A program made the translations under genes and the position numbers. Shown here piece by piece: positions 3,793 through 60,003 of a stretch of 64,000 nt of DNA (its first letter is position 1; each line of letters begins with the position of its first letter). The notes under the pieces were generated by a model. It did no database searches. It was not told the DNA's origin and worked only from the letters and a program-made list of their open reading frames with translations. The stretch comes from Candidatus Saccharimonadales bacterium (GTDB lineage: Bacteria; Patescibacteriota; Saccharimonadia; Saccharimonadales; JAUPVS01), in contig JBDSDR010000023.1 of assembly GCA_039920385.1 (NCBI GenBank), positions 6,430-70,429 of the forward strand, in the 5' to 3' direction.

Positions 3793-3814
3793 AACTGTTT
3801 TGATTATATCACTT

Positions 3815-6887: not shown

Positions 6888-7081
6888 TTTTTTCTAATAA
6901 ACTGGATAACATTCTGGATACCGCCGATAAGTAGCAGTAGCGTAAAGCCATACTGCCACCAGCTACCAGTATCCAATGCCCGTGAGCCAATTAAGTAAGC
7001 TAGTGCCAACTCGATAGTTGCCATAGTGGCATAGCCACGGCGAGTTTTATGCCAGTTATCAAACGCCTTAACGATGTTCAT
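6884..7081 (-). CDS. Small two-helix membrane protein (65 aa)
   Basis: Two hydrophobic segments. Its stop overlaps the udg start by 4 nt, which suggests coupling. Confidence 0.5.
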   Translation of the reverse strand: MNIVKAFDNWHKTRRGYATMATIELALAYLIGSRALDTGSWWQYGFTLLLLIGGIQNVIQFIRKK

Positions 7082-7084
7082 TGT

Positions 7085-9393: not shown

Positions 9394-9660
9394 TTAGCGG
9401 CGAATTTTAAGCTTTTCGGTGATTTCTAGGTATTTGTTGCTGTCTTTTTTAGCTAAGTAACGGAGTAGGCGCTTGCGTTGGCCAACCATCTGCAAAAGTC
9501 CCCGGCGAGCCATGTGGTCTTTTTTGTTGGTTTGAAGATGCTCAGTTAGCTCGGCGATGCGGCTAGTCAAAATACCGACCTGTACCTCTGGTGAACCAGT
9601 GTCTTTGGGGTTGGTTTGTAAATCTTTGATGATAGTAGCTTTTTTCTCGGTTGTAATCAT
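9394..9660 (-). CDS. rpsO: 30S ribosomal protein S15
   Basis: 88 aa with [29 protein letters not shown], the S15 signature. Conserved rpsO-pnp synteny. Confidence 0.97.
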
Positions 9661-9714
9661 GTATTTCCTTATTCCTTTGATAACAGTTAGAGGTTGGTGA
9701 TGACGTTAGACCCA

Positions 9715-9743
9715 ATTATAGCAGACTCGCCCCTGTTTATCAA
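9715..9743 (-). promoter_or_regulatory. Sigma-70-type promoter for rpsO
   Basis: On the minus strand: TTGATA (9743-9738), a 17-nt spacer, then TATAAT (9720-9715). It lies about 55 nt upstream of the rpsO ATG, which has an AAGGAA SD. Confidence 0.6.
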
Positions 9744-9763
9744 CCCTAAAACAACTTTTTTGT

Positions 9764-10462
9764 TCAGTTGCTTACTTGTAGGCTTTGATAAATTGACTCT
9801 GAGCTTAATCTGTCTACAGGTAGAGCCTCTTTGATATCAAAATCACTGATTTTAGTGCGGCGTAACTGGCTGGTGTAGGCACCAGTTTTAAGAACTTCGC
9901 CGATGTCCTGAACCAATGATCTGATATAAGTCCCGCTCGACACGGCAACGGTAAATGAAAGCTCGGGATATTTGTACTCAACATCAGTAATTTCGTAAAT
10001 TTTAACCAGCCGTGACTTCATTTCTGGTACTTTGCCGTCTCGGGCGATTTTGTAGGCACGCTTGCCATCTATTTTTACGGCCGAGTAAATAGGCGGAACT
10101 TGGCTAATTTCACCCTTAAACTGCTCTAAAGCGGCCATAACAGCATTTTTTGGAGGTTCTACAGAGGAAACTGTAGTTTTCTCCCCTTCCTCATCACCTG
10201 TGGTACTGGTTTGACCCAAACTTGCCGTAACTTGGTAAGTTTTATCGAGCTTGGTAAATTCCTCGGCTTTTTTGGTGTAGTCACCGAGCATAACAATCAT
10301 CAAGCCAGTTGCTAAAGGGTCTAGGGTGCCAGCATGACCAACTGGAAAACGTTTTTTATTGGTGGTATTGAGGCCTGAATCCTGAATAATATGGCGAATT
10401 TTGTTAACCACATCAAAACTAGTCCAGTTTAGCGGTTTATCGATAAGTAAGTAGCCATTCAT
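9764..10462 (-). CDS. truB: tRNA pseudouridine(55) synthase TruB
   Basis: N-terminal GYLLIDKPLNWTSFDVV and the catalytic motif GHAGTLDPLATG. Confidence 0.93.
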   Translation of the reverse strand: MNGYLLIDKPLNWTSFDVVNKIRHIIQDSGLNTTNKKRFPVGHAGTLDPLATGLMIVMLGDYTKKAEEFTKLDKTYQVTASLGQTSTTGDEEGEKTTVSSVEPPKNAVMAALEQFKGEISQVPPIYSAVKIDGKRAYKIARDGKVPEMKSRLVKIYEITDVEYKYPELSFTVAVSSGTYIRSLVQDIGEVLKTGAYTSQLRRTKISDFDIKEALPVDRLSSESIYQSLQVSN

Positions 10463-12096
10463 TACTGAGATGGGGGCATTGGCATCGGCGGTGGTACCGG
10501 TGGCGGAGCCGTTGGATCACCGACGCTAGCCGTTGGGTCGGTTGGCTGGCTAGGCGGCAATAAGCTAGTTGGGATATTAGGGTTTACGCCATTGGTATTT
10601 GGCGGAGCGCCAAACGGAGTTGGATTGGCTGGCGGGTTTAGATCGACAGCCGGCGAGGCATTTAAGCGTTCTAAGGGGTTAAGTGGCGCGTTGGTGGGTT
10701 GAGCCGAGATTGCCTCGTCAACAGCTTCGCGAGCTTCTTCGATTACCTCAGCTTTAGGCTCAGTCGTATCGGCCAGCGGTTTTTCATCTAAATGTGGGCT
10801 CGACACTGATTCTTCGATGCCACTCAAAGTGGTACCAACACTTCTAACCGGTTCTCCCGACAGGCTGGTTGGTCGGTTCAGGATTGGCGGTGGTGGTGTC
10901 TGGCTATTAGCTGACGACAGTGAGAAAGGGTCCGTAGACGGCTCATTCTGAAGATGCTCAGGCTGACTATTAGCAGTCAGCTGACCGCCTAAGCTAGGCG
11001 GTTGCCAGGCCATATTGCCGGTTGGTTTAGGACTATCGTTAGTGGTAGATGCTGGGGTTCTATCAACTGCCGAACCGATGGCGGTGGCATGAGTCATAAT
11101 TGGCGGGTTAATCATGCTTTTGGGAGTTTCGCCTAGTAGGTCATTGCTGTCTTCGACTTTTTCCTCTGGTTTAGAAACTGGTTCCGAAACCGGTAGTTCT
11201 TCAACTGGAGCTGGCAAAACTGCTTCTGGGGTCTCGGTTTTAGCTGGCTTCTTATCAGTTTCTTGGTGAGAAATCTGCAACAAACCCGTACCATCATCGA
11301 CATCATCTTGAGTAGCCTCATCGGTAACGGCATCTTTTACTGGAATTGGCTGCTTGTCTTCTAGCTTGCTGGCAATTAGTTGCTGGTTGGCTCCAGCGCT
11401 CATAAGCTCCGAGGCCAGCGACATAGTCTGGGGGCTAGTTTTATCATTGCTAAAGCGGTCGGTTTCGGCGACGATTCCAGTCATAAAGGCTGTTGCCATT
11501 TGACCATCAATCGCTTCGGTTACAAGACCCTTGGTCAAAAGGGCTAACATTTCTGACAAACTGCTGGAGTTAAGATCTACCCAGTTGATTGCGCCCAAGT
11601 TTCCCTGGTCCTTATTGTTGACCGATATAACTGTGGCATCATGCAGAATTCGGCCGTGGGCAACAATCGCCTGATCAAGTTCACTTCTTTCGTGCACGCC
11701 CAGTGCCAAAACGGCGTCAACATTAAAATCACCTTGGCTGAAGTCGAGGTCTTTATCAGAAAGACTTGTTCTGTAAGGAGTGATGAAGATTTTGACAACC
11801 TTATCCTCTACCTTGTAGCGCAACTTGTCGGCTTTGGCTTTATCGAGAGCAATAATGAAGTCCCGCAAACTGTCGGTGTTCTTTTCGATAGTCGCTTCGG
11901 GCTTTAGAAACTCAATAGTTGATGGTATCGCCCCACTAAATACAGCGGTAGCATGTTTTTTTAAGTGGTTGAGGACTAACGTGATACCAATACAGGCCGC
12001 CAATTGGTCAACCGACGGGTTGGCACTAACAGTAATTAGCACATTGTTGGCTTCTTTTAAGCGGTCAATAATTTGTTGTCGAGCGTTCTGGTCCAT
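10462..12096 (-). CDS. DHH/DHHA1 phosphoesterase (NrnA-like) with a ~290-aa Pro/Thr/Ser-rich C-terminal tail
   Basis: The N-terminal ~250 aa show a DHH-family layout. The remainder is low-complexity and ends in PPPVPPPMPMPPSQ. Confidence 0.7.
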   Translation of the reverse strand: MDQNARQQIIDRLKEANNVLITVSANPSVDQLAACIGITLVLNHLKKHATAVFSGAIPSTIEFLKPEATIEKNTDSLRDFIIALDKAKADKLRYKVEDKVVKIFITPYRTSLSDKDLDFSQGDFNVDAVLALGVHERSELDQAIVAHGRILHDATVISVNNKDQGNLGAINWVDLNSSSLSEMLALLTKGLVTEAIDGQMATAFMTGIVAETDRFSNDKTSPQTMSLASELMSAGANQQLIASKLEDKQPIPVKDAVTDEATQDDVDDGTGLLQISHQETDKKPAKTETPEAVLPAPVEELPVSEPVSKPEEKVEDSNDLLGETPKSMINPPIMTHATAIGSAVDRTPASTTNDSPKPTGNMAWQPPSLGGQLTANSQPEHLQNEPSTDPFSLSSANSQTPPPPILNRPTSLSGEPVRSVGTTLSGIEESVSSPHLDEKPLADTTEPKAEVIEEAREAVDEAISAQPTNAPLNPLERLNASPAVDLNPPANPTPFGAPPNTNGVNPNIPTSLLPPSQPTDPTASVGDPTAPPPVPPPMPMPPSQ

Positions 12097-18037: not shown

Positions 18038-19345
18038 TTATATGTAATCCATCAGTCGTTCTAGCCCCATTGCCGGATGACGCAACTTAGTAAGCGCCCG
18101 AGACTCAATCTGCCTAATACGCTCACGCGTAAGTTTAAACTCCCTACCAACTTCCTCGAGCGTTTTGCTTTCGCCATTTTTGTCGACCATACCAAAGCGG
18201 AACCTAAGAATTGCCTGTTCTCTTTCGTCCAACCGCTCTAGTGCCCGATTTAGTTCTGTAGTTAAATCGTTATGTTTAATCATGTCGTCGTAGCCAGTTG
18301 TGGAAGCCGGGTCGGCCGTAGATTCGCCAAGCGTGCGAGAATTAGGGTCATCACCTAACTCCCGATCTAACGAGTCAACCTGACCCTCACGTCGGATACG
18401 AATCATATCAAGCACCTTCTGTTCGTCCCATTCAAGATCTTCGGCAAGTGCCAAAATATCTTTATGTTTATCCTCCAGAGCAAGTCTGGCTTCGGCTCGG
18501 CTAAGTTTGGTAAAATCATCGTTGACATGAACCGGCAGTCTAATCTCCCTACTAGTAGTATCAACCCCCCGACTAATTGCTTGGCGGATCCACCAGGTAG
18601 CGTAGGTGCTAAACTTAAAACCTTTACGATAGTCAAACTTATCCACCGCATGGTCCAAACCAAGATTACCTTCCTGGATTAAATCCATTAAAGGTAAGCC
18701 CCGATTTTGATGCTTCTTGGCGATTGAAACTACCAAACGAAGATTAGCATGCATAAAATCTTCCTTGGCACGCAGACCATCCCGTACCCGTCGCTCTAGG
18801 GCTCGTCGCTGGCTAACTGATAAATCAGGTTCGGCTAAACTGCTTTGGGCCTCTAGGCCTTCGGTTACCCGTTTGCCCAGGCGCGCTTCGCCAGCCTTAT
18901 CAATCAGAGGATACTGACTAATTTGCTTTAGGTACATCCTAACTAAATCGTCGCCCGATACTATGCGATTAGCGCGGGGCGTAACCGGTTTGTCTTCTCC
19001 GGGGGCTACGTATGTGGGCTTTTTGGCAGGTTTAGGCTTAGGGGCCTGCGCAGTTTTTGGTACAGCTATGGGTACGGGTGTTTTAGCCTCAACGGGCTTG
19101 ATTACTCGAGATGGGGCTGGGCGTAAATCTACTGTTACCTCTGTGGCCTCAAAAACAATCGGTTCATCGCTAGTCACAAACGGACACAACAAAAAATCAT
19201 CAATTGACTCTTCATCTATTTCTGGCTCGATTAGTGGGTTAAAGTCTAGCTCGGCAATCGATTTTAGGGCGACAACTGGTATAAACTCAGCAATCGCGGC
19301 CTGTTTAGCGTAAGCAGCTTCAGCGATGTCCAGTAATTCATTCAT
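18038..19345 (-). CDS. RpoD-like sigma-70 factor, second copy, with a divergent acidic and Pro/Lys-rich N-terminus
   Basis: Region 2 reads [39 protein letters not shown]. Region 4 reads [29 protein letters not shown]. The primary rpoD is the dnaG-linked copy at 25839..27008. Confidence 0.88.
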   Translation of the reverse strand: MNELLDIAEAAYAKQAAIAEFIPVVALKSIAELDFNPLIEPEIDEESIDDFLLCPFVTSDEPIVFEATEVTVDLRPAPSRVIKPVEAKTPVPIAVPKTAQAPKPKPAKKPTYVAPGEDKPVTPRANRIVSGDDLVRMYLKQISQYPLIDKAGEARLGKRVTEGLEAQSSLAEPDLSVSQRRALERRVRDGLRAKEDFMHANLRLVVSIAKKHQNRGLPLMDLIQEGNLGLDHAVDKFDYRKGFKFSTYATWWIRQAISRGVDTTSREIRLPVHVNDDFTKLSRAEARLALEDKHKDILALAEDLEWDEQKVLDMIRIRREGQVDSLDRELGDDPNSRTLGESTADPASTTGYDDMIKHNDLTTELNRALERLDEREQAILRFRFGMVDKNGESKTLEEVGREFKLTRERIRQIESRALTKLRHPAMGLERLMDYI

Positions 19346-25276: not shown

Positions 25277-25846
25277 ATGACTAGAAAACACATCATCGCC
25301 TTTGTTGGAATGCCTGGCAGCGGCAAAGGTACTTGCACGACATATCTACACCAAAAGCACAGCTTCCCAGTTGTGCACTTTGGAAACATGGTTTACGAAG
25401 AAGTGCAGCGGCGCGGCCTAGATAATGTCAAAGACGAGCAGTTCGTACGCGAAGACATGCGCGAGCAGGAAGGTAAAGCAGTGCTTGCCAAACATGTCGC
25501 CCGAAAGGCCGACGAATTTTTTGAAGAAGGTAGCGACACAGTTGTTCTCGATGGCTTATATAGTTGGAGCGAACTAAAGTTTCTTAAAGATAAATACGGG
25601 GCTGACCTGAGTGTCATTGCCATCACCGCCCCCCGCCAAGAACGCTATAGGCGCATTCTCGCGCGCAAAGATAGCCACCGCAAATACACTTCAGCCTCGC
25701 AGATTGAAGAGCGTGATATCAGTGAAATAGAGAATCTCGAAAAGGGCGGACCAATCGCCTTCGCCGACTTCACTCTGGCTAACCATCAATCTTCCGAGCA
25801 CCTCTTAAGCGACCTAGACGAAGTTGTTACAGAAATTCTTACTTAA
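25277..25846 (+). CDS. P-loop nucleotide/nucleoside kinase-like protein (adenylate or dephospho-CoA kinase-like fold)
   Basis: Walker [12 protein letters not shown] within a ~190-aa kinase-size protein. Substrate unknown. Confidence 0.6.
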
Positions 25847-27008
25847 TATAATCGTGCAATTTACGAGCATCTTTGTGCTTGCGTAGTTTAGCCAGAGCTT
25901 TAGCTTCGATCTGGCGAATACGTTCGCGGGTAACACTAAACTCTTGACCAACTTCTTCGAGAGTATGGCTCTTGCCATCTTCTAGGCCAAACCGGAGTTT
26001 AAGAATCTTCTGTTCGCGCTCTGTCAGAGCACCGAGCATGTCTTTAACATGTTCTTTTAGCAATTGGCCTGTGGCGGCTTCTTCTGGCGAGACCGAATCT
26101 TCATCTTCGATAAAATCACCCAACACTGAATCTTCTTCGTCATCGCGTACAGAGGCATCAAGGCTGGAAATATCCTGCTTAATCTTCATGATGTGCTCGA
26201 CTTTTTCGACTTCGATTTCCATTTCTTTGGCAATTTCTTCGTTGGTTGGTTCGCGGTTTAGTTCTTGGGTTAAACGACGTTGAGTACGAAGCAGTTTGTT
26301 AATAGTTTCAACCATGTGAACCGGTATACGAATGGTGCGGGCTTGGTCGGCAATGGCACGAGTAATCGCCTGGCGAATCCACCAGGTGGCGTAGGTACTA
26401 AACTTAAAGCCTTTGTCTGGGTCAAACTTTTCGACAGCTCGTAATAGCCCGGTATTACCTTCTTGGATGAGATCTAGAAGGTCTAAACCGCGACCAACGT
26501 AGCGCTTGGCAATACTAACCACCAAACGCATGTTGGCTTCGGCCATTTTATCTTTAGCACCCTTGTCACCGGCTACGACTTGGTTGGCTAGCTTAAGTTC
26601 TTCTTCGGAGTTTAAAAGTGGGATTTTACCAATTTCTCGTAAATACAATCGAACCGAGTCGTCGGCAATATCGTCCAAATAAGTTTGGTCATCCAAAACA
26701 ATCTCTTCTTCGTCTTCGTCCTCGGCCCATTCGCTAGTAAAATCAGCGGCATTTGGCTCGGTAGCACTAACAATTGATAGATTTTGCTCTGCTAGCTGAA
26801 TATACAGGGCGTCTAGAGCGTCGACGTTTTCGGGTGCATCAGGGATCACAGCATAAATATCACGTTGATCAATTTTTTTATCTTTTTTGGCTTTAGCTAG
26901 TAACTTTTTGGTCACAGCTGCAAAATCGGCCACCGGTACTTGGGTAACTGGCTTGGTTGATTTAGCTGATTTAGCTGGTTTTGTCGGCTTGTCGGCTTTT
27001 TTTGCCAT
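25839..27008 (-). CDS. rpoD: Primary RNA polymerase sigma factor RpoD
   Basis: [41 protein letters not shown]. Region 4 reads [27 protein letters not shown]. Located immediately downstream of dnaG. Confidence 0.95.
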
Positions 27009-51829: not shown

Positions 51830-52266
51830 TATTTTTCTCCTTCTTTTTTAGCTTCAACTTCGGCCTCGGCGGCGCTAACAGCATCGGGGTGAACCCGGCC
51901 TTCAGCCAACAAGACTCCATCGGCCTTCAACACAGCTTCTTTGAAGCTCTTGGCCCAAAGGTGTTCAAATACTAGTACCCCAGCCGAGCTGTTGTTGTCT
52001 AGTGAATCGGCCAATTCTAGCGCATCCTCTTCGGTCATCAGGCCAGTCAGGTCGTTGGCGTAGGCTTTAAAAGCCGCCGCTACTTCTGGCGGCATGTTTT
52101 CGAGCTCAACAATAGCAGCGTTACCAGCTGCGTCTTTTGTAACGAAGACGAGGTCGATAATACGGACTAGTCCGGAATCAACCAGCTTTTGCAATTCAGC
52201 GATAATTTCGCCTTTAAAGTTATTCTGAGGAAAGCCGATGGCTACATAATCTACTGGCCCAAGCAT
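51829..52266 (-). CDS. Conserved hypothetical protein, DUF6325-like
   Basis: MLGPVDYVAIGFPQNNFKGEIIAELQKLVDSGLVRIIDLVFVTKD resembles the actinobacterial family usually found next to SHOCT proteins. 1-nt overlap with the SHOCT gene. Confidence 0.5.
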   Translation of the reverse strand: MLGPVDYVAIGFPQNNFKGEIIAELQKLVDSGLVRIIDLVFVTKDAAGNAAIVELENMPPEVAAAFKAYANDLTGLMTEEDALELADSLDNNSSAGVLVFEHLWAKSFKEAVLKADGVLLAEGRVHPDAVSAAEAEVEAKKEGEK

Positions 52267-52359
52267 GCTGACTCCTAACAGTTAAGTTTCTTAATTAATT
52301 ATAGCAAACTACTAAGCATGTTAGAGTATTACCAACACCACATAAACTAGGAAATCCCT

Positions 52360-53406
52360 ATGAGTAAATCGTCTGATGTCGCCGTCTTTAAGCAAAAGAT
52401 CTTTATTGTGATGGGAATCGCCATTGGCTTATACCTATTCTTCTTAAGCCGCAGCGTCTTGGCTAAACTAGGAATTGCTATCTTATTTATGGTCATTCTT
52501 GATCCGTTAGTAAAGTTCTTTATGCGTTTTATGCCTAAAAAGAATCGGTTCTTGGCTATTATGGCCACATTTGCAGTTTTAGGCTTATTTATAGTTGTGG
52601 TACTAGCTCGTCTAATTCCCATCCTGAATGAGCAGTTTAGTGAAGCCCTTAAGACCTTGAACGATGCTGCCAATGAGGCCCAAACCACTGGTCAAACCTT
52701 ATCGCAAGCCTTAGCGGCTGGTAGCCCAACCAGCAGTATTAATGCCTTATTGCCCTACATTTCTAAAGCCATTCCCGCCATACTCGACTTTCTGTTTAGT
52801 TCTATCAACTCTTTACTGAGTGGGCTATTCGCCCAGTTAATGGTCTTTGGTTTTGTACTATTTGGGCTAATCGAGGGGCCGCGCATGGTCGAAGCCCTTA
52901 AGACCGCCGTGCCAAAAGAACGCCTGACTGATGTTGTTTGGACCTGCCGAACTGCCTACAAAGCAGTCACCAGTTACATCACCGGTAATCTATTCATCAG
53001 CCTGTGCGCAGGTGTTGCCAGTTTCTTCTTTTGCTTGATCGTCGGCATCCCGTACCCCTTCTTGATGGCCGTCGCGGTTGCAATCTGTGACCTGGTCCCA
53101 ATGTTTGGCGCCTATCTGTTTGGCCTGGTACTTGGCCTGTTTGGCCTCCTGTTTGTCGGTATGGATGTGGCAATTATTGCCGTCATCTTTACAGTTATTT
53201 ACCAACAATTCGAAAACCAGGTCTTAAGCCCGATTGTTTATAACAAGGCTAACAGCCTATCCCCCTTGACAGTGTTGGTTGCGGTTAGCATTGGTGGAGC
53301 GGTTGGCGGCTTACTTGGTGCACTTATTGCCATCCCCGTTGGTACCACCATACAATTGTCGATTCAGCGTTATTTAGCCCGCAAGAACACCGCTCCAGCC
53401 AAGTAG
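52360..53406 (+). CDS. AI-2E family (PerM/YhhT-like) transporter
   Basis: Eight-helix polytopic layout. Conserved C-terminal ...PLTVLVAVSIGGAVGGLLGALIAIPV. Confidence 0.75.
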   Translation: MSKSSDVAVFKQKIFIVMGIAIGLYLFFLSRSVLAKLGIAILFMVILDPLVKFFMRFMPKKNRFLAIMATFAVLGLFIVVVLARLIPILNEQFSEALKTLNDAANEAQTTGQTLSQALAAGSPTSSINALLPYISKAIPAILDFLFSSINSLLSGLFAQLMVFGFVLFGLIEGPRMVEALKTAVPKERLTDVVWTCRTAYKAVTSYITGNLFISLCAGVASFFFCLIVGIPYPFLMAVAVAICDLVPMFGAYLFGLVLGLFGLLFVGMDVAIIAVIFTVIYQQFENQVLSPIVYNKANSLSPLTVLVAVSIGGAVGGLLGALIAIPVGTTIQLSIQRYLARKNTAPAK

Positions 53407-53414
53407 TCTTCTCA

Positions 53415-53504
53415 TGGCGGAAGGGGAGGGATTCGAACCCTCGGTACCATTGCTGGCACACTTGTTTTCGAGACAAGCCAGTTCAACCACTCCTGCACCC
53501 TTCC
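53415..53504 (-). tRNA. tRNA-Ser (anticodon CGA)
   Basis: Hand-folded. Acceptor GGAAGGG/CCCTTCC. Anticodon stem CTTGT/ACAAG with loop CTCGAAA. Long variable arm. T-arm GAGGG-TTCGAAT-CCCTC. Encoded CCA. Confidence 0.9.
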
Positions 53505-53598
53505 GTACCGCTATTTTAACAGATTGAACACCAAAGTAGTGGGGGACTGGTATTTACTGACCAAATATGGTAGGATTACCTCTGTTACTTTGCATTTT

Positions 53599-53675
53599 GT
53601 ACCCGTAGCTCAGCTGGATAGAGCGTTGGCTTGCGGAGCCAAAGGTCGTAGGTTCGAATCCTATCGGGTACACCA
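53599..53675 (+). tRNA. tRNA-Arg (anticodon GCG)
   Basis: Hand-folded. Acceptor GTACCCG/CGGGTAC. D-arm GCTC-AGCTGGATA-GAGC. Anticodon stem TTGGC/GCCAA with loop TTGCGGA. T-arm GTAGG-TTCGAAT-CCTAT. Discriminator A and encoded CCA. Confidence 0.9.
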
Positions 53676-53683
53676 ATAAAAAC

Positions 53684-53707
53684 GTCTCACGTTAGTGGGA
53701 CTTTTTT
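53684..53707 (+). terminator. Rho-independent terminator after tRNA-Arg
   Basis: GTCTCAC-gtta-GTGGGAC followed by TTTTTT. Confidence 0.75.
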
Positions 53708-53719
53708 ATTGGTTATTTG

Positions 53720-53838
53720 GAAAGAATGAGAACCGTAGCGCGAAGCGCAGGTGCGACGGCAAGGTGCACGCGCAGGAGTTTACTCCGAGCATGTGCCGCA
53801 GACGGTAGCGAAGCGTCCATCCAGAGGGTACACCAAGC
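53720..53838 (+). ncRNA. Unclassified conserved structured element, copy A (tRNA-terminator-proximal)
   Basis: Shares the 15-mer GAAAGAATGAGAACC, two hairpins with compensatory changes and several conserved blocks with 58539..58636. It ends in a copy of the tRNA-Arg 3' end (GGGTACACCAA). Confidence 0.4.
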
Positions 53839-53880
53839 ATAAGCAGCACGAAAGACTTCCTAATGAAAGTCTTTTTTTGT
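53826..53880 (+). repeat. Repeat unit R0 (partial): duplicated tRNA-Arg 3' end plus private terminator
   Basis: GGGTACACCAAGCATAA, then AAAGACTT-cctaatga-AAGTCTTT, then TTTTTGTTT. The 11 nt at 53826-53836 are identical to 53666-53676. Confidence 0.65.
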
Positions 53881-53896
53881 TTGGTATGATTCTATT

Positions 53897-54538
53897 ATGC
53901 GTACTCCGAACCCCGATAACCCCACTCAACGCGAACACATTTCGGCTGAACACTTAGCTGAGTTCGTTAAGGGCTTGGAACCACGCGGAGATAAGCCAGC
54001 TTTCGTTGCTATTTCTGGATTTGGAGGATCAGGGAAATCTACATTAGCCACAAGGATAGGTGAAATGATCGGAGAAGAGGCGACCGTTGTACCGATTGAT
54101 AACTTTATTATTGGAGCCAGGGATGAGCGGTCAGAAGACTGGCACACATTCGATAGGGAAAGACTTGACCATGATGTAATTCAACCTGCACGCATTGGCG
54201 AGATACTTAGGTACCAAAGGTATAATTCGGGAGACTGGGTCAATAACAGAGGAGGAGATTGGGTCGAGACTACTGTTGGCCGAATTATAATTATTGAAGG
54301 CTGTGGCATTCTACACCCAGCGCTGATGCCAGCCTACGACCTATCCGCATGGATAGACTTACCGCAGTACCGAGCGCTAGAATCCGCAAAGTATCGTGAC
54401 GCCTCCGAAGTAGAGCTTTTTGGGGATGACGATACAGTAGTTCTATGGGATGAAGTTTGGGGACCGAACGACAAAGACTTCTTGGACAACTTCAGACCAG
54501 ACCTCCATGCAACAGTACTTATCGAACCACAGTTCTGA
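53897..54538 (+). CDS. Cassette A: P-loop kinase (uridine kinase/PRK-like)
   Basis: Walker A ISGFGGSGKSTLA. Extended -10 TGgTATGAT lies 6 nt upstream of the ATG. The stop TGA lies inside repeat R1. Confidence 0.65.
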   Translation: MRTPNPDNPTQREHISAEHLAEFVKGLEPRGDKPAFVAISGFGGSGKSTLATRIGEMIGEEATVVPIDNFIIGARDERSEDWHTFDRERLDHDVIQPARIGEILRYQRYNSGDWVNNRGGDWVETTVGRIIIIEGCGILHPALMPAYDLSAWIDLPQYRALESAKYRDASEVELFGDDDTVVLWDEVWGPNDKDFLDNFRPDLHATVLIEPQF

Positions 54539-54609
54539 CCTCAACCACTACGCCACACCAAAGCATAAGCGTTGTCTGAAGACTTCTTCTGAGGTCTTTT
54601 TGTTTACAG
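54532..54609 (+). repeat. Repeat unit R1
   Basis: GTTCTGACCTCAACCACTACGCCACACCAAAGCATAA, then AGACTTC-ttct-GAGGTCT, then TTTTGTTT. Confidence 0.7.
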
Positions 54610-54617
54610 GTATAGGG

Positions 54618-55196
54618 TTAAAGTTTGCTCAAGTCGGGCGCAGAATCCGGCCATTCTAAAGCATAGTGTCCAGCCGTCCAGACAATTTGTTCAACCAGCA
54701 TATGAGGTGCTTTAGCAATTACCCCCAGTCGCTGCCCAGCGCTTTCAGCATCTTTTATACGGTTAAGATCCACGGTCGGGCTATAACCCTCTATTACTTT
54801 CCCAGACCTGGTAATGTAGTTATGCTTATCAACTTCATAAGGGTCGGCTCCGGAGTAACTACCGTTCGTTCCTTTCCACATTCCAAGATACCAACAGAGA
54901 TCTTTTCCAAGAGTGATGAACGGGCGTTTATATATTAAGTGAGCATTCCTATCAGCGCCAGGCTTCACATACTGTTGACGGCTATAAGTAGCCCATACTT
55001 CGGGAGGCGGGTTCTCCTCTCTCAAAAGACCTGCCAGCACCTTGAGGCCTGCGGCTACCTTAAAAAATCCTCCATTACGGTATCGTTGCTGTAAAGCTTC
55101 ATGTTCAGCATTAGCTCTCGCTTGTTGTTGCTGGGCGGCAGTTTCGGCAATAGATTCAGCTCTTGCACGCTCAATACGACGGTTCATTTCAGACAT
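54618..55196 (-). CDS. Cassette B: hypothetical protein (192 aa)
   Basis: Longest ORF in the interval. AAGGAG SD lies 5 nt upstream. N-terminal Q/A-rich helix. No recognised family. Confidence 0.55.
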   Translation of the reverse strand: MSEMNRRIERARAESIAETAAQQQQARANAEHEALQQRYRNGGFFKVAAGLKVLAGLLREENPPPEVWATYSRQQYVKPGADRNAHLIYKRPFITLGKDLCWYLGMWKGTNGSYSGADPYEVDKHNYITRSGKVIEGYSPTVDLNRIKDAESAGQRLGVIAKAPHMLVEQIVWTAGHYALEWPDSAPDLSKL

Positions 55197-55254
55197 AACT
55201 ACTCCTTATACAAGAATAGTTATGTTTTATCAAATACTTTTCTGAACTTTTGTT

Positions 55255-55330
55255 GTTCTGACCTCAGCTATCGCGCCACACCAAGCATAATCACCGTACA
55301 AAGATCTCTGGATGGAGGTCTTTTTTGTTT
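55255..55330 (+). repeat. Repeat unit R2
   Basis: GTTCTGACCTCAGCTATCGCGCCACACCAAGCATAA, then AGATCTC-tggatg-GAGGTCT, then TTTTTTGTTT. Confidence 0.7.
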
Positions 55331-55628
55331 ACTCTGTTGGTTCGGGTACAGTTGGCTGCTCACCCTGCTGGGTCCGAAGACCTGCTATAACACCAGAGTC
55401 GAAGCCCATTTCGTGACAGCCAAGTCCCACGGCAATTGCTCCTGTGGCGATACCTACTACAGAGAGGGCATTAAGAGCAAGATCAGTGAACGCCTCACCC
55501 GTTTCCACTATACCTATAGCAGCTGCACCCATGGCAATCAGAATCACTCCAGGAGCTATGTAACCCATTTTATGGCTTTCTCTGCGGTTTCTATGGTGTT
55601 CGATTTGAGCTTCTATAGTACTGTTCAT
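55329..55628 (-). CDS. Cassette C: small Gly/Ala-rich two-TM protein (99 aa)
   Basis: Two hydrophobic helices (GVILIAMGAAAIGIV and VVGIATGAIAVGLG). TATACT lies 7 nt upstream of the ATG. Preferred over the junk-like antisense ORF 55101..55676. Confidence 0.5.
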   Translation of the reverse strand: MNSTIEAQIEHHRNRRESHKMGYIAPGVILIAMGAAAIGIVETGEAFTDLALNALSVVGIATGAIAVGLGCHEMGFDSGVIAGLRTQQGEQPTVPEPTE

Positions 55629-55675
55629 GTTTCAAAGTATAGGCTTATCAATTTTTTCTGTAAACCATACCAGTA

Positions 55676-55742
55676 GTTCTGACCTCAGCCATCACGCCAC
55701 ACCAAAATATGAACCTCCCGTACATGGGGTTTTTATTTTTTT
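55676..55742 (+). repeat. Repeat unit R3
   Basis: GTTCTGACCTCAGCCATCACGCCACACCAAAATATGAA, then a weak CCCG-taca-TGGG hairpin, then TTTTTATTTTTTT. Confidence 0.65.
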
Positions 55743-55756
55743 GCTATAGTTAGAGC

Positions 55757-56155
55757 ATGAATCAGCTCGACCAGCAGCCCCAAACACAAGAACCAGAGAA
55801 AAAGCCCCGCAGGATGTACACTGCTGGCTGGATTACTGGTGGATTGGCATTAGGCGCATTTGGCGTAAGAGTGATAGAAGTAGCCCCAGACACTGGAAGT
55901 AAGATTTTTGGCGGGCTTCTTGCCGGTCTCGGCTTACTAACTGCCGGGGGAATAGGAGGCTCTTACTATCTTGGGGATTCGGACGTTAGCCCTCATCGTC
56001 TCCATTTACCACAACCTACAGAAATAGACACTGCTGGCTGGGAAGACCCACTTGCCGTTGAAGGGCTTGGTGTTAGGGCAGATGACATACCAGATGGAAG
56101 CTGGCCGGACACATTTGATCGGGAAGCTAACGAAGGAATAATTCCACCTGAATAG
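55757..56155 (+). CDS. Cassette D: small Gly-rich two-TM protein (132 aa)
   Basis: Helices GWITGGLALGAFGV and FGGLLAGLGLLTAGGIGG. Extended -10 TGcTATAGT lies 6 nt upstream of the ATG. Confidence 0.55.
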   Translation: MNQLDQQPQTQEPEKKPRRMYTAGWITGGLALGAFGVRVIEVAPDTGSKIFGGLLAGLGLLTAGGIGGSYYLGDSDVSPHRLHLPQPTEIDTAGWEDPLAVEGLGVRADDIPDGSWPDTFDREANEGIIPPE

Positions 56156-56171
56156 GTACGGATCCGTTCAG

Positions 56172-57584
56172 CTAGATGCCCAATTGCATCTTTAACGCCG
56201 CCTTCTCACTGGCCAGTGGCCAAGCATTAAAACTGCAGCCCTGTAAGCTAATTGACTGCTGCTGCATAACAGGGGCCGGTTGGCCAGCACCGCTACAGTT
56301 GGCATGGTAAAAGCCGAACCAGTGGCCAGTTTCGTGATTAATCACCATCGAACGGTATTCATCTAAACTACCTCCAGCAGCGTTCCAAGCCGCCGAAGCA
56401 CCTTGCCAACGATCAAAGTTAATTACGACATTGGCGCCAACGCGACAACTCCAGTCGCTGTCGCAAATTGCACCAAAACTCGACATCTCCGAAGCCGCGC
56501 TTAACCAAACCGTCATGCTGCAGCCACTATCAGCCTTGTTAAGACTGACTAGGCCATCTAAGTTCCAGCCCCGAGGGTCACTGTAAACAGATAGGAGCTT
56601 AGTATTAAGCGCCCCTAGGTAGCTGGCATCCACCCCACGAGTCGCTAAGCAATAGTTATATGACTTTCGAGCAATTGGCGCCGCCACCAACCCAACCTCG
56701 GCAGGCTTACTACTGGTAAGAGAGGCCTTTATAGTGCTGCTGGCCTCACTAATGTTCTGGACCCTAATGCCATAGCTAGATCCAACTGCCTGAACGAAGG
56801 CCCGAATCTTATCGCTGCTAAGTGCAAAGCTAGCGCCCTCAGCATCGTACCAACTAGCCACTTCTTGAGTCGTCGCCTTACGCGACTTGCCATTGTACGA
56901 CAGTGTAATTGCGGTGTTTTGTTGGGTCTGAAGACCTTTTAGCTGATCTTCTAAGGATTGGCGGGAAACAGCTGGTGTTTTTACCTCGACCGGCAAATTA
57001 ACAACCATTGACCCCTGGGCCAAGCTATTAATAATGGCCTGCTTGGTACTACTTGCATCAAGAGTTTGACCATTTACCGGATCTTTGATTGTAAAGCTAC
57101 CGTTTTCTAACGTCAGCTTAGCATCTTCGGCTACACGCTGGTACTCGGGCAAGAGAGCAGTGAAGGCTTCGTTAAACTTTGTGTCCTCGATTGTTGTCCG
57201 TACGGCCACATTTTGAACTCTGAACACATTTATTATCGGCAGCCAGCTTCGGGTTGTCCGAGCCTGTTGCTCAAGTGCCGCCCGATCCAGGCTAACCCCC
57301 AATTCGCCGACTGACTTGCTGACAGTCTTGTTGGCATAGTTAAGTTCGATTTTATCAGGTAAAACAGCTTTAGTGGTTGAGACTTGAGCAATCTCAACAA
57401 AACTGACCGAACCAACTTTCTTGCTACCAACTACCGTATTGGGGTAGGTGCGACCTTTATAAGCCAGGTAGAGCCCGGAGTTAGCCAGCACAAATGCTCC
57501 AGCAACAGCCAATCCAATAATAGCCGAACGCTTTGTCCAGACTATCCGCTTGAACTTTTTTCCCCATTTCATCTGAATACTCAT
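56172..57584 (-). CDS. Membrane-anchored protein with VanW/YoaR-like N-terminal repeats and a DUF3152-like HExxH metalloprotease domain
   Basis: N-terminal TM helix. C-terminal YRSMVINHETGHWFGFYHANCSGAGQPAPVMQQQ...C..NAWP matches the actinobacterial DUF3152 pattern as I remember it. Confidence 0.6.
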   Translation of the reverse strand: MSIQMKWGKKFKRIVWTKRSAIIGLAVAGAFVLANSGLYLAYKGRTYPNTVVGSKKVGSVSFVEIAQVSTTKAVLPDKIELNYANKTVSKSVGELGVSLDRAALEQQARTTRSWLPIINVFRVQNVAVRTTIEDTKFNEAFTALLPEYQRVAEDAKLTLENGSFTIKDPVNGQTLDASSTKQAIINSLAQGSMVVNLPVEVKTPAVSRQSLEDQLKGLQTQQNTAITLSYNGKSRKATTQEVASWYDAEGASFALSSDKIRAFVQAVGSSYGIRVQNISEASSTIKASLTSSKPAEVGLVAAPIARKSYNYCLATRGVDASYLGALNTKLLSVYSDPRGWNLDGLVSLNKADSGCSMTVWLSAASEMSSFGAICDSDWSCRVGANVVINFDRWQGASAAWNAAGGSLDEYRSMVINHETGHWFGFYHANCSGAGQPAPVMQQQSISLQGCSFNAWPLASEKAALKMQLGI

Positions 57585-57607
57585 CGCCTCTGGAGATTTA
57601 TAAAAGT

Positions 57608-58237
57608 TTAGAAGCGAATTTTATGCATAAACCGGTCGACCGCATCTTTTCGGCCTTCTTCAATTGGCAAATAGCCGCTTAGGACTTCAACGATTTGCTT
57701 TTCATCATCCGGCTCGTAAAACACACTTATACCCGGCATAAAACGCTTAAGTGGCATAAAAGTAATCGAACTGAAGGGCCCTTCGTCAATAACCGAGAAG
57801 GATTTAAACTCGTCATAGGCGTAACTTTTCTTGCCAATATGAACACCAGCACTATCAACCTGATAGTCCAAGGTTCGGGGCTTACGGGCGGCGAAAATAG
57901 CTAAGACAATAACAACCAAAATTACCATTGCTGTCGAGAATATATCGTGAGTTAACAGATAAATTACAGCTGCCGCCGCCAAACCGGCCAAGCCTAGCAA
58001 AACATACCACCCGAAATTCTTTTGGTGAGCAATAAACTCAGAAGCTGACCAAGTTATGCCGTCCTTTTCTACTGTGGGTTTGGGCTGGGGTGTCTGGGCA
58101 AACTCGGGTGCGGCAGGGGAGGTAGCGGCAGGTGTAGGCGGTTTATCGGCACTATCTGGTTTATATTCCCAGCCAGGCGTGACCGGCTGCGGGTTAGTAG
58201 GCTCAGGTTGCATAAGCGTATTGTATTCGTCTAACAC
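57608..58237 (-). CDS. Membrane protein: Pro-rich N-terminus, two TM helices, small C-terminal (PH-like?) domain
   Basis: Helices WYVLLGLAGLAAAAVIYLL and AMVILVVIVLAIFAA, then a ~90-aa soluble domain. Confidence 0.55.
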   Translation of the reverse strand: MLDEYNTLMQPEPTNPQPVTPGWEYKPDSADKPPTPAATSPAAPEFAQTPQPKPTVEKDGITWSASEFIAHQKNFGWYVLLGLAGLAAAAVIYLLTHDIFSTAMVILVVIVLAIFAARKPRTLDYQVDSAGVHIGKKSYAYDEFKSFSVIDEGPFSSITFMPLKRFMPGISVFYEPDDEKQIVEVLSGYLPIEEGRKDAVDRFMHKIRF

Positions 58238-58296
58238 TGTAAAAGCAACGCTCTCTCTGGTATAATCTCCCTGTTCAGCCTGTGTAAAACATGTAC

Positions 58297-58389
58297 GGAG
58301 GAGTACCCAAGTGGCTGAAGGGGACGGTTTGCTAAATCGTTAGTGGGGCGCAAGTTCCAGCGAGGGTTCGAATCCCTCCTCCTCCGCCA
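58297..58389 (+). tRNA. tRNA-Ser (anticodon GCU)
   Basis: Hand-folded. Acceptor GGAGGAG/CTCCTCC. Anticodon stem ACGGT/ATCGT with loop TTGCTAA. Long variable arm. T-arm GAGGG-TTCGAAT-CCCTC. G73 and CCA. Confidence 0.9.
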
Positions 58390-58404
58390 TTTTAATTTTG
58401 TTCT

Positions 58405-58494
<90 letters not shown>

Positions 58495-58497
58495 AAG

Positions 58498-58535
58498 AAA
58501 AAATGATCTTGCCAAAGGTAGGATCATTTTTCTTT
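58498..58535 (+). terminator. Rho-independent terminator after the tRNA-Ser pair
   Basis: AAAAATGATC (58499-58508) pairs with GATCATTTTT (58522-58531), with the T-run continuing. Confidence 0.75.
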
Positions 58536-58538
58536 CAC

Positions 58539-58636
58539 GAAAGAATGAGAACCCAACTGCGAAGCAGACGTTCTATCACAAGGAGCTCGCGCAGAAATTT
58601 ATTTCGAGCGTGCTCGCAGGTTCGGCCTATCTCACC
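58539..58636 (+). ncRNA. Unclassified conserved structured element, copy B
   Basis: Starts with the same 15-mer GAAAGAATGAGAACC. Hairpins CTGC-GAA-GCAG and GAAA-TTTA-TTTC covary with copy A. It fills the gap between the tRNA terminator and the convergent comF stop. Confidence 0.4.
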
Positions 58637-59305
58637 TTAAATCTTCTGAGCAAACAGCACCGCTCGGACCTCCTTTGCACCGTTTTCTTTTAGCACCCTG
58701 GATGCCACTTCAATAGTTGCTCCAGTTGTCAGCACATCATCCACCAACAACACCTTCTTCCCAGCAACTAGCTGCGGGTTAGGGCAGTAGTAGGCGTGCT
58801 GTAATTGCTGTAAGCGTTCTTGGCGATTAGCCCCGACTTGACGGGTTTTTCCGTGGCGCCGTAATAATGATTGATAGGGGAGGTGCCTAGACCGAGCTAA
58901 CTCGCGGGCAATTAGCTGAGCTTGGTCGTACCCCCTTTGTCGAACCCGCTGGGCGACGGTTGGCACATGCACTACAACATAGTCTTTATAAATCGGTAAA
59001 CGCCTATCCATTATACGGCCGATAATATAAGCAGCCGCTTGGGTACGCTCAAACTTAAGCCGGCCGACTAGTTGTTGCGAGACCCCTTTATAGGCCGTAC
59101 TAACATTAACCGATAATAGAGTAGGGTGTGGCCGACAAACCTCGCACAGGGCCTGCTGGGCAGGCTGTCGACACTTATAGCAACTGTCTGGAGCGGGCGG
59201 TAGGCAATTAACTATACAGTCTCGGCATAGCAAAGCTCCTTCTTTTTGGCAGCCTAAACAGTCAAACGGTGCGAATATCTGCAAAACTTGATCTACTTTC
59301 CACAT
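58637..59305 (-). CDS. comF: ComF family protein (phosphoribosyltransferase domain)
   Basis: N-terminal Cys clusters (CLGC...CRDC, CYKC...CEVC). C-terminal PRT motif VLLVDDVLTTGAT. Confidence 0.85.
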   Translation of the reverse strand: MWKVDQVLQIFAPFDCLGCQKEGALLCRDCIVNCLPPAPDSCYKCRQPAQQALCEVCRPHPTLLSVNVSTAYKGVSQQLVGRLKFERTQAAAYIIGRIMDRRLPIYKDYVVVHVPTVAQRVRQRGYDQAQLIARELARSRHLPYQSLLRRHGKTRQVGANRQERLQQLQHAYYCPNPQLVAGKKVLLVDDVLTTGATIEVASRVLKENGAKEVRAVLFAQKI

Positions 59306-59492
59306 TTCTTAAACTATAGGCGAGCATGATTAACTTGTTATTAACAGAGCATAAGCGAAGTGTTGTGTATATTATGTTGTAAATCTTCACCCCTAGACGT
59401 TGCACGGTAAGTATTGCCTAAGTTATACTTACGTAAAAGATAAAAACTCTTAAAATACAATTACTAAGTACTACTTGGAGGGTATACAAACA

Positions 59493-59984
59493 ATGGCGCG
59501 ACGAAACCGTGATGATGATTTATTGATGGAAGACGAGTTGACCGCTGCTTTTTTGGGTGATGATGACTTACCAACTAGCAACAGCGCGCCTGCAAATGAT
59601 GATGCAGCCGCTACTCAGCAAGTACCTGCTAACGACGAATGGGACGAAGATGAAGCTGTTCCTGGCCAATTAGCCGTCGATGTTTACGAAACAGTCGAAA
59701 AGCTTGTCGTTAAGGCCCGTACTGCTGGTGTTAATAAAAGCGAACTCGACGTAAGTATTGCCGACAACACACTAAGTATCCGGGGCACGCTATCGGCCGG
59801 TAACGAAGAAGAAGTCGAAAACTACTTTGTGCAAGAATGTTACTGGGGCGAATTCTCTCGTAGCATTGCATTGCCAGTACCAGTTAAAGAAGATGAGGTT
59901 GAAGCACTACTTAAAGATGGCGTTCTAACCATCAGCTTCCGCAAGCTCAAGCAAGATACTGTCAAGAAAATCCAGGTCCTTTAG
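59493..59984 (+). CDS. Hsp20/alpha-crystallin small heat-shock protein
   Basis: Alpha-crystallin domain: LAVDVYETVEKLVVKARTAGV...LSIRGT...FSRSIALPVPV...LKDGVLTISFRK. I chose ATG 59493 downstream of GGAGG. The track start is TTG 59475. Confidence 0.88.
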   Translation: MARRNRDDDLLMEDELTAAFLGDDDLPTSNSAPANDDAAATQQVPANDEWDEDEAVPGQLAVDVYETVEKLVVKARTAGVNKSELDVSIADNTLSIRGTLSAGNEEEVENYFVQECYWGEFSRSIALPVPVKEDEVEALLKDGVLTISFRKLKQDTVKKIQVL

Positions 59985-60003
59985 AAAAAGATCTTTGGGA
60001 TAT

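Follow-up and report, generated by a model that had tools for sequence, protein, structure and literature searches.

Genomic islands, prophages and tycheposons integrated at transfer RNA (tRNA) genes leave a characteristic layout: the insert stands behind an intact tRNA gene, and after it comes a same-orientation copy of the tRNA 3' part, reaching from the T-stem or T-loop region to the gene end (PMC4383910, PMC9897764). The Islander database records T-stem-region sites in 1836 of 3919 islands (PMC4383910). Serial integrations at tRNA genes, in which units accrete in tandem with the newest nearest to the tRNA while older fragments decay, have also been described (bioRxiv 10.1101/2020.12.28.424599). 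Two small units with a related layout were found in a 64-kb stretch of the genome of a Candidatus Saccharimonadales bacterium (contig JBDSDR010000023.1), here called the window, meaning the whole of the 64,000 nucleotides analyzed. They belong to a family in which an intact tRNA gene and a same-orientation cognate 3' fragment delimit the insert, and in which tandem units occur in one locus (L025), as in the serial integrations. Unlike islands, the units are only 130-230 bp long and contain no integrase or any other gene. The tyrosine-integrase gene that Islander looks for inside the interval is absent, the 130-230 bp holding no open reading frame (ORF). The same core is moreover found at 10 types of tRNA with cognate tails, the core is a covarying RNA structure, and the phage and plasmid collections searched contain no match.

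This family of tRNA-linked structured units is real and reproducible, is found in a part of the Saccharimonadales, and is apparently undescribed. The preliminary description of the window reported two copies of a ~100-nt element, one behind the terminator of tRNA-Arg (copy A) and one behind that of tRNA-Ser(UGA) (copy B). Both copies are genuine: 53720-53793 and 58539-58612 form a 74-nt ungapped direct repeat with 74% identity (family D5 of the repeat search). The shared 15-mer GAAAGAATGAGAACC, said to begin close to a T-run, is present at 53720 (copy A, 12 nt after a T-rich tract) and at 58539 (copy B, 3 nt after one) and nowhere else in the window. Its first 8 nt (GAAAGAAT) are conserved between the window copies only, not family-wide. 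A block pattern derived from the copies matched these two places alone, with 0 matches in 100 dinucleotide-preserving shuffles.

Four loci (L001, L005, L007 and L010) were fetched from the nearest ComF relatives, which are 72-73% identical; the nearest HolB relatives are 50% identical. A search pattern was then derived from four copies, the two of the window and two in L010. A scan of genome contigs with a gap of 14-32 nt gave only 5 chance matches, in high-GC taxa with no tRNA nearby; three of the four known copies had a gap of 34-36 nt. With the corrected pattern, 24 metagenomic loci were obtained: 15 are real, and 9 match by chance in coding DNA that is GC-rich. This pattern could retrieve only sequences with the invariant blocks, so that ascertainment was biased and the impression of invariance is overstated. 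The covariance-model search proposed in the preliminary description did find further homologues: model R1 recognized 17 distinct copies in the window and 13 loci from metagenomes or metagenome-assembled genomes (E 2.5e-17 to 2.3e-05), including two divergent copies invisible to the pattern. It found no third copy in the window. Loci with checkable taxonomy belong to Saccharimonadales. L021 comes from a relative of the window genome, the named homologues of the L025 HolB are from Saccharimonadales/Saccharibacteria, and the remaining loci have a similar G+C content of 41-50%.

No match overlapping any copy was obtained with Rfam 15 (cmscan, E<=10) for window positions 52000-60000 and six copy-bearing loci, in agreement with the earlier failure to match the element to tmRNA, SRP RNA, 6S RNA or RNase P RNA. 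Rfam scans of 12 loci at the gathering threshold returned tRNA and rRNA matches only. In the IMG/VR viral contigs, two patterns gave 0 and 3 matches, the 3 being chance matches in which the covariance model recognized nothing. Searches of GenBank phages and PLSDB plasmids with blastn gave no match, and no description of such an element was found in the literature.

The unit is non-coding, ~125-250 bp long, and ordered as a hairpin or terminator at the CCA, a spacer of 5-15 nt, the core of 70-90 nt, a linker or extra hairpins, and the tRNA tail. In the core, the variable hairpin P1a, whose loop is C(GNA)G, lies inside an outer helix, P1 (GAGAACC/GGTTC). From P1, a joiner, TCG(A/G)TC..CAA(A/G), leads to P2, a helix of 5-6 bp, which is followed by the invariant internal loop CGCRCA opposite GAGCA, by P3, whose 4 bp are capped by a YUUR tetraloop (UUUA or CUUG), and by an invariant GCAG. 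The linker after GCAG often consists of (A/T)(C/T)GTGCG plus 2-4 nt, or is replaced by extra hairpins; the long forms (L018, L024, L030 and L037) carry 60-85 nt extra. The extension of L037 (6152-6178) includes a second, partial CGCGCAG-hairpin-CGAGCA motif, matching model positions 43-69 with E=0.0016. This motif, which is also seen downstream of the L018 and L024 cores, acts as a repeatable module.

The two hairpins first described correspond to P1a and P3; both had been read correctly, and their apparent covariation holds in the alignment of 17 sequences. Two helices had been missed: P2 (GGTGCA/TGTGCC in copy A, GAGC/GCTC in copy B), which covaries strongly and encloses the second hairpin through the invariant internal loop, and the outer helix (GAGAACC/GGTTC-like) around the first hairpin. 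In the model-fitted alignment of the 17 copies, 92.8% of cells are paired, versus 25-39% with slid partners. The statistical check of covariation that had been suggested gave 14 of 22 pairs changed on both sides, a number reached in 0 of 500 shuffles. A MAFFT alignment gave 89.1% of cells paired (97.8% in P2/P3) and 9 of 13 pairs changed on both sides, and RNAalifold independently predicted P2/P3, with 8 of 11 pairs covarying. Non-Watson-Crick pairs in P2/P3 include five G-U and no A-C, which indicates that the folding strand is the tRNA-sense strand, and the loop types (GNA, CUUG/UUUA) are those stable in RNA. The folding energy of the window copies is unremarkable (z = +0.37 and -1.32); the structure is supported by covariation, not by folding energy. 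The element is genuine, conserved and structured, and it is neither a chance product nor coding.

Several known structures were compared and rejected. Core and tail do not form a tRNA-like cloverleaf, as no 5' acceptor strand covaries with the tail, and the sequence of the invariant loop does not fit a K-turn or loop E motif. Readings as group II intron domain V and as an integron attC-like site were dropped. A group I intron was likewise rejected: the tRNA introns reported from Patescibacteria lie at positions 35/36 of the anticodon loop, not in the T-loop (PMC13011429).

The two window copies are composed as follows, T1 and T2 being the hairpins or terminators before and after the core and P4 an optional extra hairpin.

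53599-53675, plus strand: tRNA-Arg(GCG), the gene upstream of copy A (ARAGORN; Rfam tRNA, 71.3 bits).
53676-53712, plus strand: hairpin/terminator T1 of copy A, abutting the CCA, CCAATAAAAACGTCTCAC-GTTA-GTGGGACTTTTTTATTGG (terminator scan, stem 53684-53701).
53728-53801, plus strand: conserved core of copy A (R1 match 53725-53804, 79.1 bits, E=3.5e-14; covariation).
53728-53734, plus strand: copy A, 5' strand of P1, GAGAACC.
53738-53748, plus strand: copy A, P1a, GCGC-GAA-GCGC.
53749-53762, plus strand: copy A, 3' strand of P1 and joiner.
53763-53768 and 53792-53797, plus strand: copy A, P2, GGTGCA and its partner TGTGCC.
53769-53774 and 53787-53791, plus strand: copy A, invariant loop CGCGCA and the opposite GAGCA.
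53775-53786, plus strand: copy A, P3, GGAG-TTTA-CTCC.
53798-53801, plus strand: copy A, invariant GCAG.
53801-53818, plus strand: copy A, optional hairpin P4, GACG-GTAGCGAAG-CGTC (minimum-free-energy fold).
53819-53836, plus strand: copy A tail, a partly decayed tRNA-Arg 3' end (longest exact match 10 nt).
53837-53880, plus strand: copy A, trailer AGCATAAGCAGCAC and weak terminator T2 (AAGACTT...AAGTCTT, then a T-run).
58405-58494, plus strand: tRNA-Ser(UGA), the gene upstream of copy B (ARAGORN; Rfam tRNA).
58495-58536, plus strand: hairpin/terminator T1 of copy B, AAGAAAAAATGATCTTGCC-AAAGG-TAGGATCATTTTTCTTTC (read from the sequence).
58547-58619, plus strand: conserved core of copy B (R1 match 58544-58622, 76.5 bits, E=1.2e-13).
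58547-58553, plus strand: copy B, GAGAACC.
58557-58567, plus strand: copy B, P1a, CTGC-GAA-GCAG.
58583-58586 and 58612-58615, plus strand: copy B, P2, GAGC and its partner GCTC.
58588-58593 and 58606-58610, plus strand: copy B, invariant loop CGCGCA and the opposite GAGCG.
58594-58605, plus strand: copy B, P3, GAAA-TTTA-TTTC.
58616-58619, plus strand: copy B, GCAG.
58620-58636, plus strand: copy B, decayed tail GTTCGGCCTATCTCACC, in the position equivalent to the tails of other copies and abutting the comF stop codon.

Both window tRNAs are followed by a terminator composed of an A-tract, a hairpin and a T-tract, the stem of which reaches back to the CCA; in copy A the stem extension pairs CCA with TGG. 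T1 of copy A agrees at 33 of 37 positions with the terminator behind tRNA-Arg in L007, where the module is absent, and the T1 stem of copy B is similar to that of the tRNA-Ser(UGA) copy in L021. The tRNA genes in the window and in L001, L005, L007, L010 and L017-L037 encode CCA, and directly behind them there is typically a terminator of bidirectional appearance, in which the A-tract/T-tract stem extends so that CCA(A) pairs with (T)TGG. A CGACC-CTTGT-GGTCG-like stem-loop is common to several tRNA trailers across loci. P4 of copy A is homologous to the GTAGCG(A/C)AGCGT segment of long-form copies, as judged from the sequence downstream of the cores in L018, L021, L024, L030 and L037.

The tail of copy A reads ATCC-AGA-GGGTACACCA, versus AATCC-TATC-GGGTACACCA in tRNA-Arg. 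As first noticed, GGGTACACCA at 53827-53836 is an exact copy of the last 10 nt of the tRNA (53666-53675); the orthologous tail in L010 is an exact 17-mer, TCCTATCGGGTACACCA. The separate terminator assigned to copy A does exist as a hairpin at ~53852-53880, but it is weak (7 bp, 2 of them G-C), and the terminator scanner made no call; its orthologue in L010 is stronger. The region 53837-53880 shows 90% identity over 51 nt to L010 (10431-10381), and under an insertion model this trailer with T2 would be the original trailer of tRNA-Arg. Copy B extends, as reported, to the stop codon (58637-58639) of the convergent comF ORF (58637-59305, minus strand). Its end had been said to resemble the tRNA-Ser 3' end weakly; the likeness is indeed weak, the longest exact match to the tRNA-Ser(UGA) 3' end being at chance level, and it makes sense only in light of the family.

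Three copies of a 33-nt repeat, GTTCTGACCTCAGCNATCNCGCCACACCAA (76-91% identical), lie to the right of copy A at 54529-54561, 55252-55284 and 55673-55705. Two are followed by AGCATAA(G/T)C and the third by AAATATG, and all then by a terminator (54578, 55300 and 55711). The 3' part of these repeats, each considered with ~50 nt downstream, is similar to the flank of copy A (ACACCAAGCATAAGC and T2, 53831-53880). One repeat is conserved in L010 (9737-9708), and small genes without assigned function lie between the repeats. The repeats may represent units with internal deletions, tails from a different tRNA, or an array resembling cassettes behind tRNA-Arg.

Every copy of the family lies downstream of a tRNA gene and in the same orientation. 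Ten isoacceptor types are represented: Arg-GCG (2 copies), Ser-UGA (2), Ser-GCU (1), Tyr (2 loci, one of them tandem), Leu-UAA (2), Gln (3), Thr-UGU (1), Lys-UUU (1), Ala-UGC (1) and Phe-GAA (1). An intact upstream tRNA is present in 15 copies, and 13 of these have a core that begins 45-55 nt past it; in L020 the distance is 14 nt and the hairpin is missing, and in the distal unit of the L025 tandem it is 200 nt. A hairpin of 33-40 nt abutting the CCA fills the gap between tRNA and core in 14 of these 15.

The preliminary description treated the copied tRNA 3' end as a side curiosity. It is instead what defines the family: the last 17-19 nt of the upstream tRNA are repeated after the core. The tail corresponds to tRNA positions ~59-76, starting at position 58-60 and always ending at the CCA. 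In seven copies, an exact tail of 14-19 nt lies 123-171 nt downstream of the cognate sequence in the tRNA (the repeat period), and decayed tails are seen in most others, as listed here by the longest exact match to the cognate tRNA.

L020, tRNA-Thr: 19 nt.
L025 unit 1 (tRNA-Tyr), L035 (tRNA-Ala) and L037b (tRNA-Phe): 18 nt each.
L010 (tRNA-Arg) and L017 (tRNA-Tyr): 17 nt each.
L030, tRNA-Gln: 14 nt (15/16).
Window copy A, tRNA-Arg: 10 nt.
L028 (tRNA-Lys) and L025 unit 2 (tRNA-Tyr): 9 nt each.
Window copy B and L021 (tRNA-Ser(UGA)), L10S (tRNA-Ser(GCU)) and L018 (tRNA-Leu): recognizable, decayed.
L037a, tRNA-Leu: none.

In L024 and L032 the upstream tRNA-Gln is decayed, its T-arm being deleted, and the tail is a clean tRNA-Gln 3' end. 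The pseudogenes (L024 ~2720-2800, L032 ~3000-3060) keep the anticodon-stem remnant GTTCCAG and end in ...CTCAGCCA; the two loci are diverged, and the core is of the long form in one and of the short form in the other. Cores that are ~80% identical are found behind tRNA-Tyr (L017), tRNA-Gln (L032), tRNA-Lys (L028) and tRNA-Thr (L020), each with the cognate tail, which indicates that the tail is acquired from the target and not carried along. A tail that changes with the target also speaks against an attP carried by the element and specific to a single tRNA. Cores from different samples also cluster as a Leu-Leu and as a Gln-Gln pair.

Filled and empty sites were compared among the window and its relatives. 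The site behind tRNA-Ser(GCU) is filled in L010 and empty in the window (tRNA gene at 58297-58389), L005 and L007; that behind tRNA-Ser(UGA) is filled in the window and L021 and empty in L001, L005, L007 and L010; and that behind tRNA-Arg is filled in the window and L010 and empty in L005 and L007. In the relatives with empty sites, a full-sensitivity covariance-model search with filters off found nothing. A tRNA-Thr/Tyr/Thr locus on a 942-kb Saccharimonadales contig is also free of the element. At the tRNA-Arg site, the tail, trailer and T2 are 90% identical between the window and L010, the hairpins are unrelated, and the cores differ in P1a, P2, P3 and P4; thus, the flank is conserved and the insert is variable. 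In L001, a possible decayed unit, ..GTTCGGAAAGCCG..GTGCAG..ATCATCCCTTATTCA, was recognized by eye upstream of tRNA-Ser(UGA) at ~10840-10960 (minus strand) and missed by the covariance model. It sits where L010 has its tRNA-Ser(GCU) unit, and the same promoter, TTTA(C/T)A..GGTATAAT, then follows.

L025 carries two tandem units behind tRNA-Tyr; the proximal tail is a perfect 18-nt copy and the distal one is degenerate. The same locus contains a duplicated segment (6716-7180 and 9486-9950, 2.77 kb apart), which spans from just inside tRNA-Thr(UGU) through tRNA-Tyr and the hairpin to the first ~35 nt of the core. The ~2.3 kb between the two segments holds a surface-protein-like ORF of 493 aa, which belongs to no family and has only a weak surface-protein match in PDB. 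Identity of the duplication breaks on either side of the core motif GGTTCGGTCG, an unrelated hairpin replaces P2/P3 in the upstream copy, and the acceptor stem of the second tRNA-Thr contains mismatches (Rfam 61.9 versus 75.6 bits). In L035, a unit with a hairpin that has no U-run lies between tRNA-Ala and tRNA-Ile within a 16S-23S-5S operon, a position compatible with, and exposed to, strong sense transcription. The operon (555-7834, minus strand) runs 16S, tRNA-Ala, element, tRNA-Ile, 23S, 5S; its 23S match of 3337 nt, versus a 2925-position model, suggests an insertion or intron in the 23S gene.

At roughly an even chance, the units are non-autonomous mobile elements that insert at the 3' ends of tRNA genes and carry an RNA core. 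Insertion would leave the tRNA intact, with its last 17-19 bp flanking the insert on both sides. The repeat would be taken from the target at each insertion, as in a target-site duplication or a target-primed event, and the tail, no longer needed, would then decay. The core would probably be transcribed in the tRNA sense by read-through from a tRNA or rRNA promoter; read-through from the tRNA is made plausible by the wobble pattern and by the copy inside the rRNA operon. The core may be the part selected for recognition by the mobilizing machinery or for a function adopted by the host. Empty sites, tandem units and the tRNA 3'-end repeat together point to an insertion or mobile element rather than, or besides, an ordinary small RNA (sRNA) gene. 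The discrete RNA of 130-160 nt first proposed for the two copies is partly supported, in that the element is conserved, structured and non-coding and may be transcribed.

Several points weigh against mobility. No transposase, integrase or reverse transcriptase was found beside the copies or in the window with Pfam and PHROGs. Terminal inverted repeats are absent, the right-end linker has no inverted match to the left ends, and no sequence is conserved at the left end, directly behind the CCA. A target duplication of 17-19 bp exceeds what is usual for DNA transposons, and Patescibacteria are reported to lack group II introns (PMC13011429). The near identity of T1 of copy A to the core-free terminator of L007 (33/37) fits better with a native T1 and an insertion of core, tail and T2 only. 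The insertion boundaries are drawn from diverged relatives, and transcription of the unit is deduced from context. Cores with decayed tails (window B, L021, L018 and L10S) keep all invariant positions, although the search pattern required those positions. Their retention despite tail decay indicates selection on the core after insertion, which fits a host RNA function at least equally well.

Such a host function leads to the main alternative, possible though doubtful: a host-encoded family of sRNA genes. The unit would then be a circular permutation of that described above, made of core, tail and its own terminator, and the tail would be a functional mimic of the tRNA 3' end. It could serve as a guide for a nucleic-acid-guided enzyme, as a 3' acceptor strand like an RNase P external guide, or as a decoy for enzymes or toxins acting on tRNA 3' ends. 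The strong covariation, the ~22 invariant positions kept even where the tail is decayed, the folding of the sense strand and the copy inside an rRNA operon agree with this, as do the apparently native T1 of the window compared with L007 and the fact that tail and T2 are the best-conserved part between the window and L010. The tails of L024 and L032 remain clean tRNA-Gln 3' ends, 16/18 identical to each other, beside a dead tRNA-Gln. However, about half of the copies with an intact core have lost the tail or retain it in decayed form (window A partly; window B, L021, L018, L037a, L10S and L028), no known mechanism would equip a host gene with tails fitting 10 different tRNAs, a consistent promoter is not seen in front of the core, and patchy presence in relatives with tandem copies resembles insertion dynamics. 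Known sRNAs from the external transcribed spacers at tRNA 3' ends are similar in being non-coding RNAs directly behind a tRNA, probably released from the tRNA co-transcript. They differ in being locus-specific, while the units are a multi-copy conserved fold with a tRNA 3'-end repeat.

It is unlikely that the units are scars of tyrosine-integrase events, in which the intact tRNA would be attL and the tail the displaced 3' fragment of the tRNA gene (attR). The hairpin and core would be leftover attP arms after loss of the interior, or a satellite without an integrase, mobilized in trans. Besides the island-like layout, tandem arrays with the newest unit beside the tRNA are known (10.1101/2020.12.28.424599), and the flanking genes are often variable and cargo-like. 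The unit size of 130-230 bp is also about that of an attP, by comparison with the attP of phage lambda. Against this, neither the 17 copies nor their neighborhoods contain an integrase gene. The boundaries are the same all 17 times, whereas random deletion would leave varying ones, and for ten different tRNA targets, genomes of ~1 Mb would have to supply integrases of many specificities. Four different tails stand on ~80% identical cores; covariation of the RNA type, G-U pairs and stable RNA loops are unexpected of protein-binding att arms; and the core is not found in IMG/VR, GenBank phages or PLSDB plasmids.

A bacterial element resembling short interspersed nuclear elements (SINEs), or one that homes by its own RNA, is quite unlikely as well. 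A read-through transcript of hairpin, core, linker and tail would be freed at its 5' end by tRNA 3' processing. With its 3' tail, which has the sense of tRNA positions 59-76, it would pair with the antisense strand where a tRNA gene has a nick in the T-loop, and it would then either serve as a template for DNA synthesis or direct a recombinase. This would regenerate the order of tRNA, insert and positions 59-76, and a new tRNA target would give a new tail automatically. An RNA-mediated, target-primed mechanism fits the conserved 3' module, the unconserved 5' end, one apparently 5'-truncated copy and the variable 14-19-bp repeat. A left boundary exactly at the CCA also fits an RNA route, since tRNA 3' processing would cut a read-through transcript there. 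The start of the tail at position 59 also agrees with a halt of reverse transcription at m1A58, the base methylated by TrmI. No reverse transcriptase that could serve such a route was found beside the copies or in the window.

Four further kinds of described elements can be compared with the units. Non-autonomous SINE-like retroposons, which to our knowledge are not known in bacteria, likewise have a conserved structured 3' module and a variable 5' part, as in the apparently 5'-truncated L020, with target-derived direct repeats of variable length (14-19 bp in the units, which lie beside highly transcribed tRNA and rRNA genes). The units differ in that no reverse transcriptase or endonuclease partner was found and that the repeat always comprises the same tRNA positions, not a loose site. 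Positions 59-76 of a tRNA including the CCA are also the 18 nt of the retroviral primer-binding site and of the tRNA-derived fragments tRF-3a. Unlike the primer-binding sites of long terminal repeat elements, the tRNA copy in the units is in the sense orientation on the folding strand, not complementary, and no retroelement genes accompany it; the complementary 18-nt segment of a tRNA-primed retroelement is missing, and no reverse transcriptase was found among the neighbors of the copies or the window genes.

In the omega RNA or right-end RNA (reRNA) of TnpB and in the short homing CRISPR RNA (crRNA) of type V-K CRISPR-associated transposons, which home to tRNA genes, a structured scaffold precedes a 3' match to the insertion-site DNA. 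The layout of scaffold plus 3' guide is that of the units, with their 14-19-nt match; however, roughly half of the intact scaffolds carry a decayed tail. The units differ from these systems in having no TnpB, Cas12k or Tn7-like genes and no transposon ends, and in that the scaffold is often kept and the 'guide' decayed. No effector gene (tnpB, iscB or cas12) was found among the neighbors of the copies. Class C group II introns choose sites directly behind intrinsic terminators and are oriented with transcription, a placement that the units share. The units have no domain V/VI signature or intron-encoded protein and are far too short, and the Rfam models Intron_gpII and group-II-D1D4 gave no match at E<=10; the unit starts with GAGAACC and has 70-90 nt, versus the GUGYG...AY ends expected. 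The features of a miniature inverted-repeat transposable element, namely terminal inverted repeats and a short duplication of fixed length, are not seen either, the duplication being 14-19 bp.

A small arginine-rich protein of 31-41 aa (MRT...), starting at an ATG inside GAATGAGAACC in both window copies, can be set aside: the in-frame ATG is present in the window copies and L017 (MRTVARS..., MRTQLRS..., MRTVRRS...), but a start codon (ATG, GTG or TTG) stands there in only 8 of 15 copies, the GAGAACC-CGCRCAG distance of 24, 34, 35, 36, 39, 42 or 43 nt does not keep the frame, so that the alignment contradicts a conserved reading frame, substitutions are compensatory in helices and not at third codon positions, and no Pfam match was obtained.

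The neighbors of the copies, as classified with Pfam and PHROGs, include tRNAs, comF, GH10, MATCAP-like, DUF6994, ATP-grasp, a surface-protein-like ORF and proteins without family match; they are core genes or variable, cargo-like genes, and the window itself, judged from 30 of its ORFs, is core chromosome. To the right of copy A (53897-56155), the window encodes a P-loop-like protein of 213 aa, one of 192 aa, and membrane-like proteins of 99 and 132 aa, without family; in L005 and L007 an MFS transporter takes their place, and the stretch appears to be a variable region beside tRNA-Arg. A Logan contig of SRR26386594 (L048, SRR26386594_140076) whose comF is identical to that of the window ends ~170 nt past comF, inside the copy B/tRNA-Ser region, a break typical of repeats. 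Elsewhere in the window, an 80-nt direct repeat with 80% identity (18570-18649 and 26359-26438) lies inside two sigma-70 paralogues (ORFs 18038-19345 and 25839-27008) and is ordinary paralogy.

Saccharibacteria and other members of the candidate phyla radiation (CPR) have very small genomes, few recognized mobile elements and a poorly known RNA biology. What is apparently new here is a multi-copy structured RNA motif tied to tRNA genes and closed by a tRNA tail of ~18 nt, which is not in Rfam 15. The motif marks variable regions beside tRNA genes and likely explains assembly breaks there, and its covariance model can be used across CPR genomes to seek a partner protein by co-occurrence. If the units are mobile, they would reveal an insertion machinery that recognizes tRNA genes generically and duplicates a precisely bounded segment from the T-loop to the CCA. 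If the tail is functional, they would constitute a family of tRNA 3'-end mimics or guides. If they home by their own RNA, they would represent a new class of RNA-mediated, tRNA-gene-targeted mobility in highly reduced bacterial genomes.

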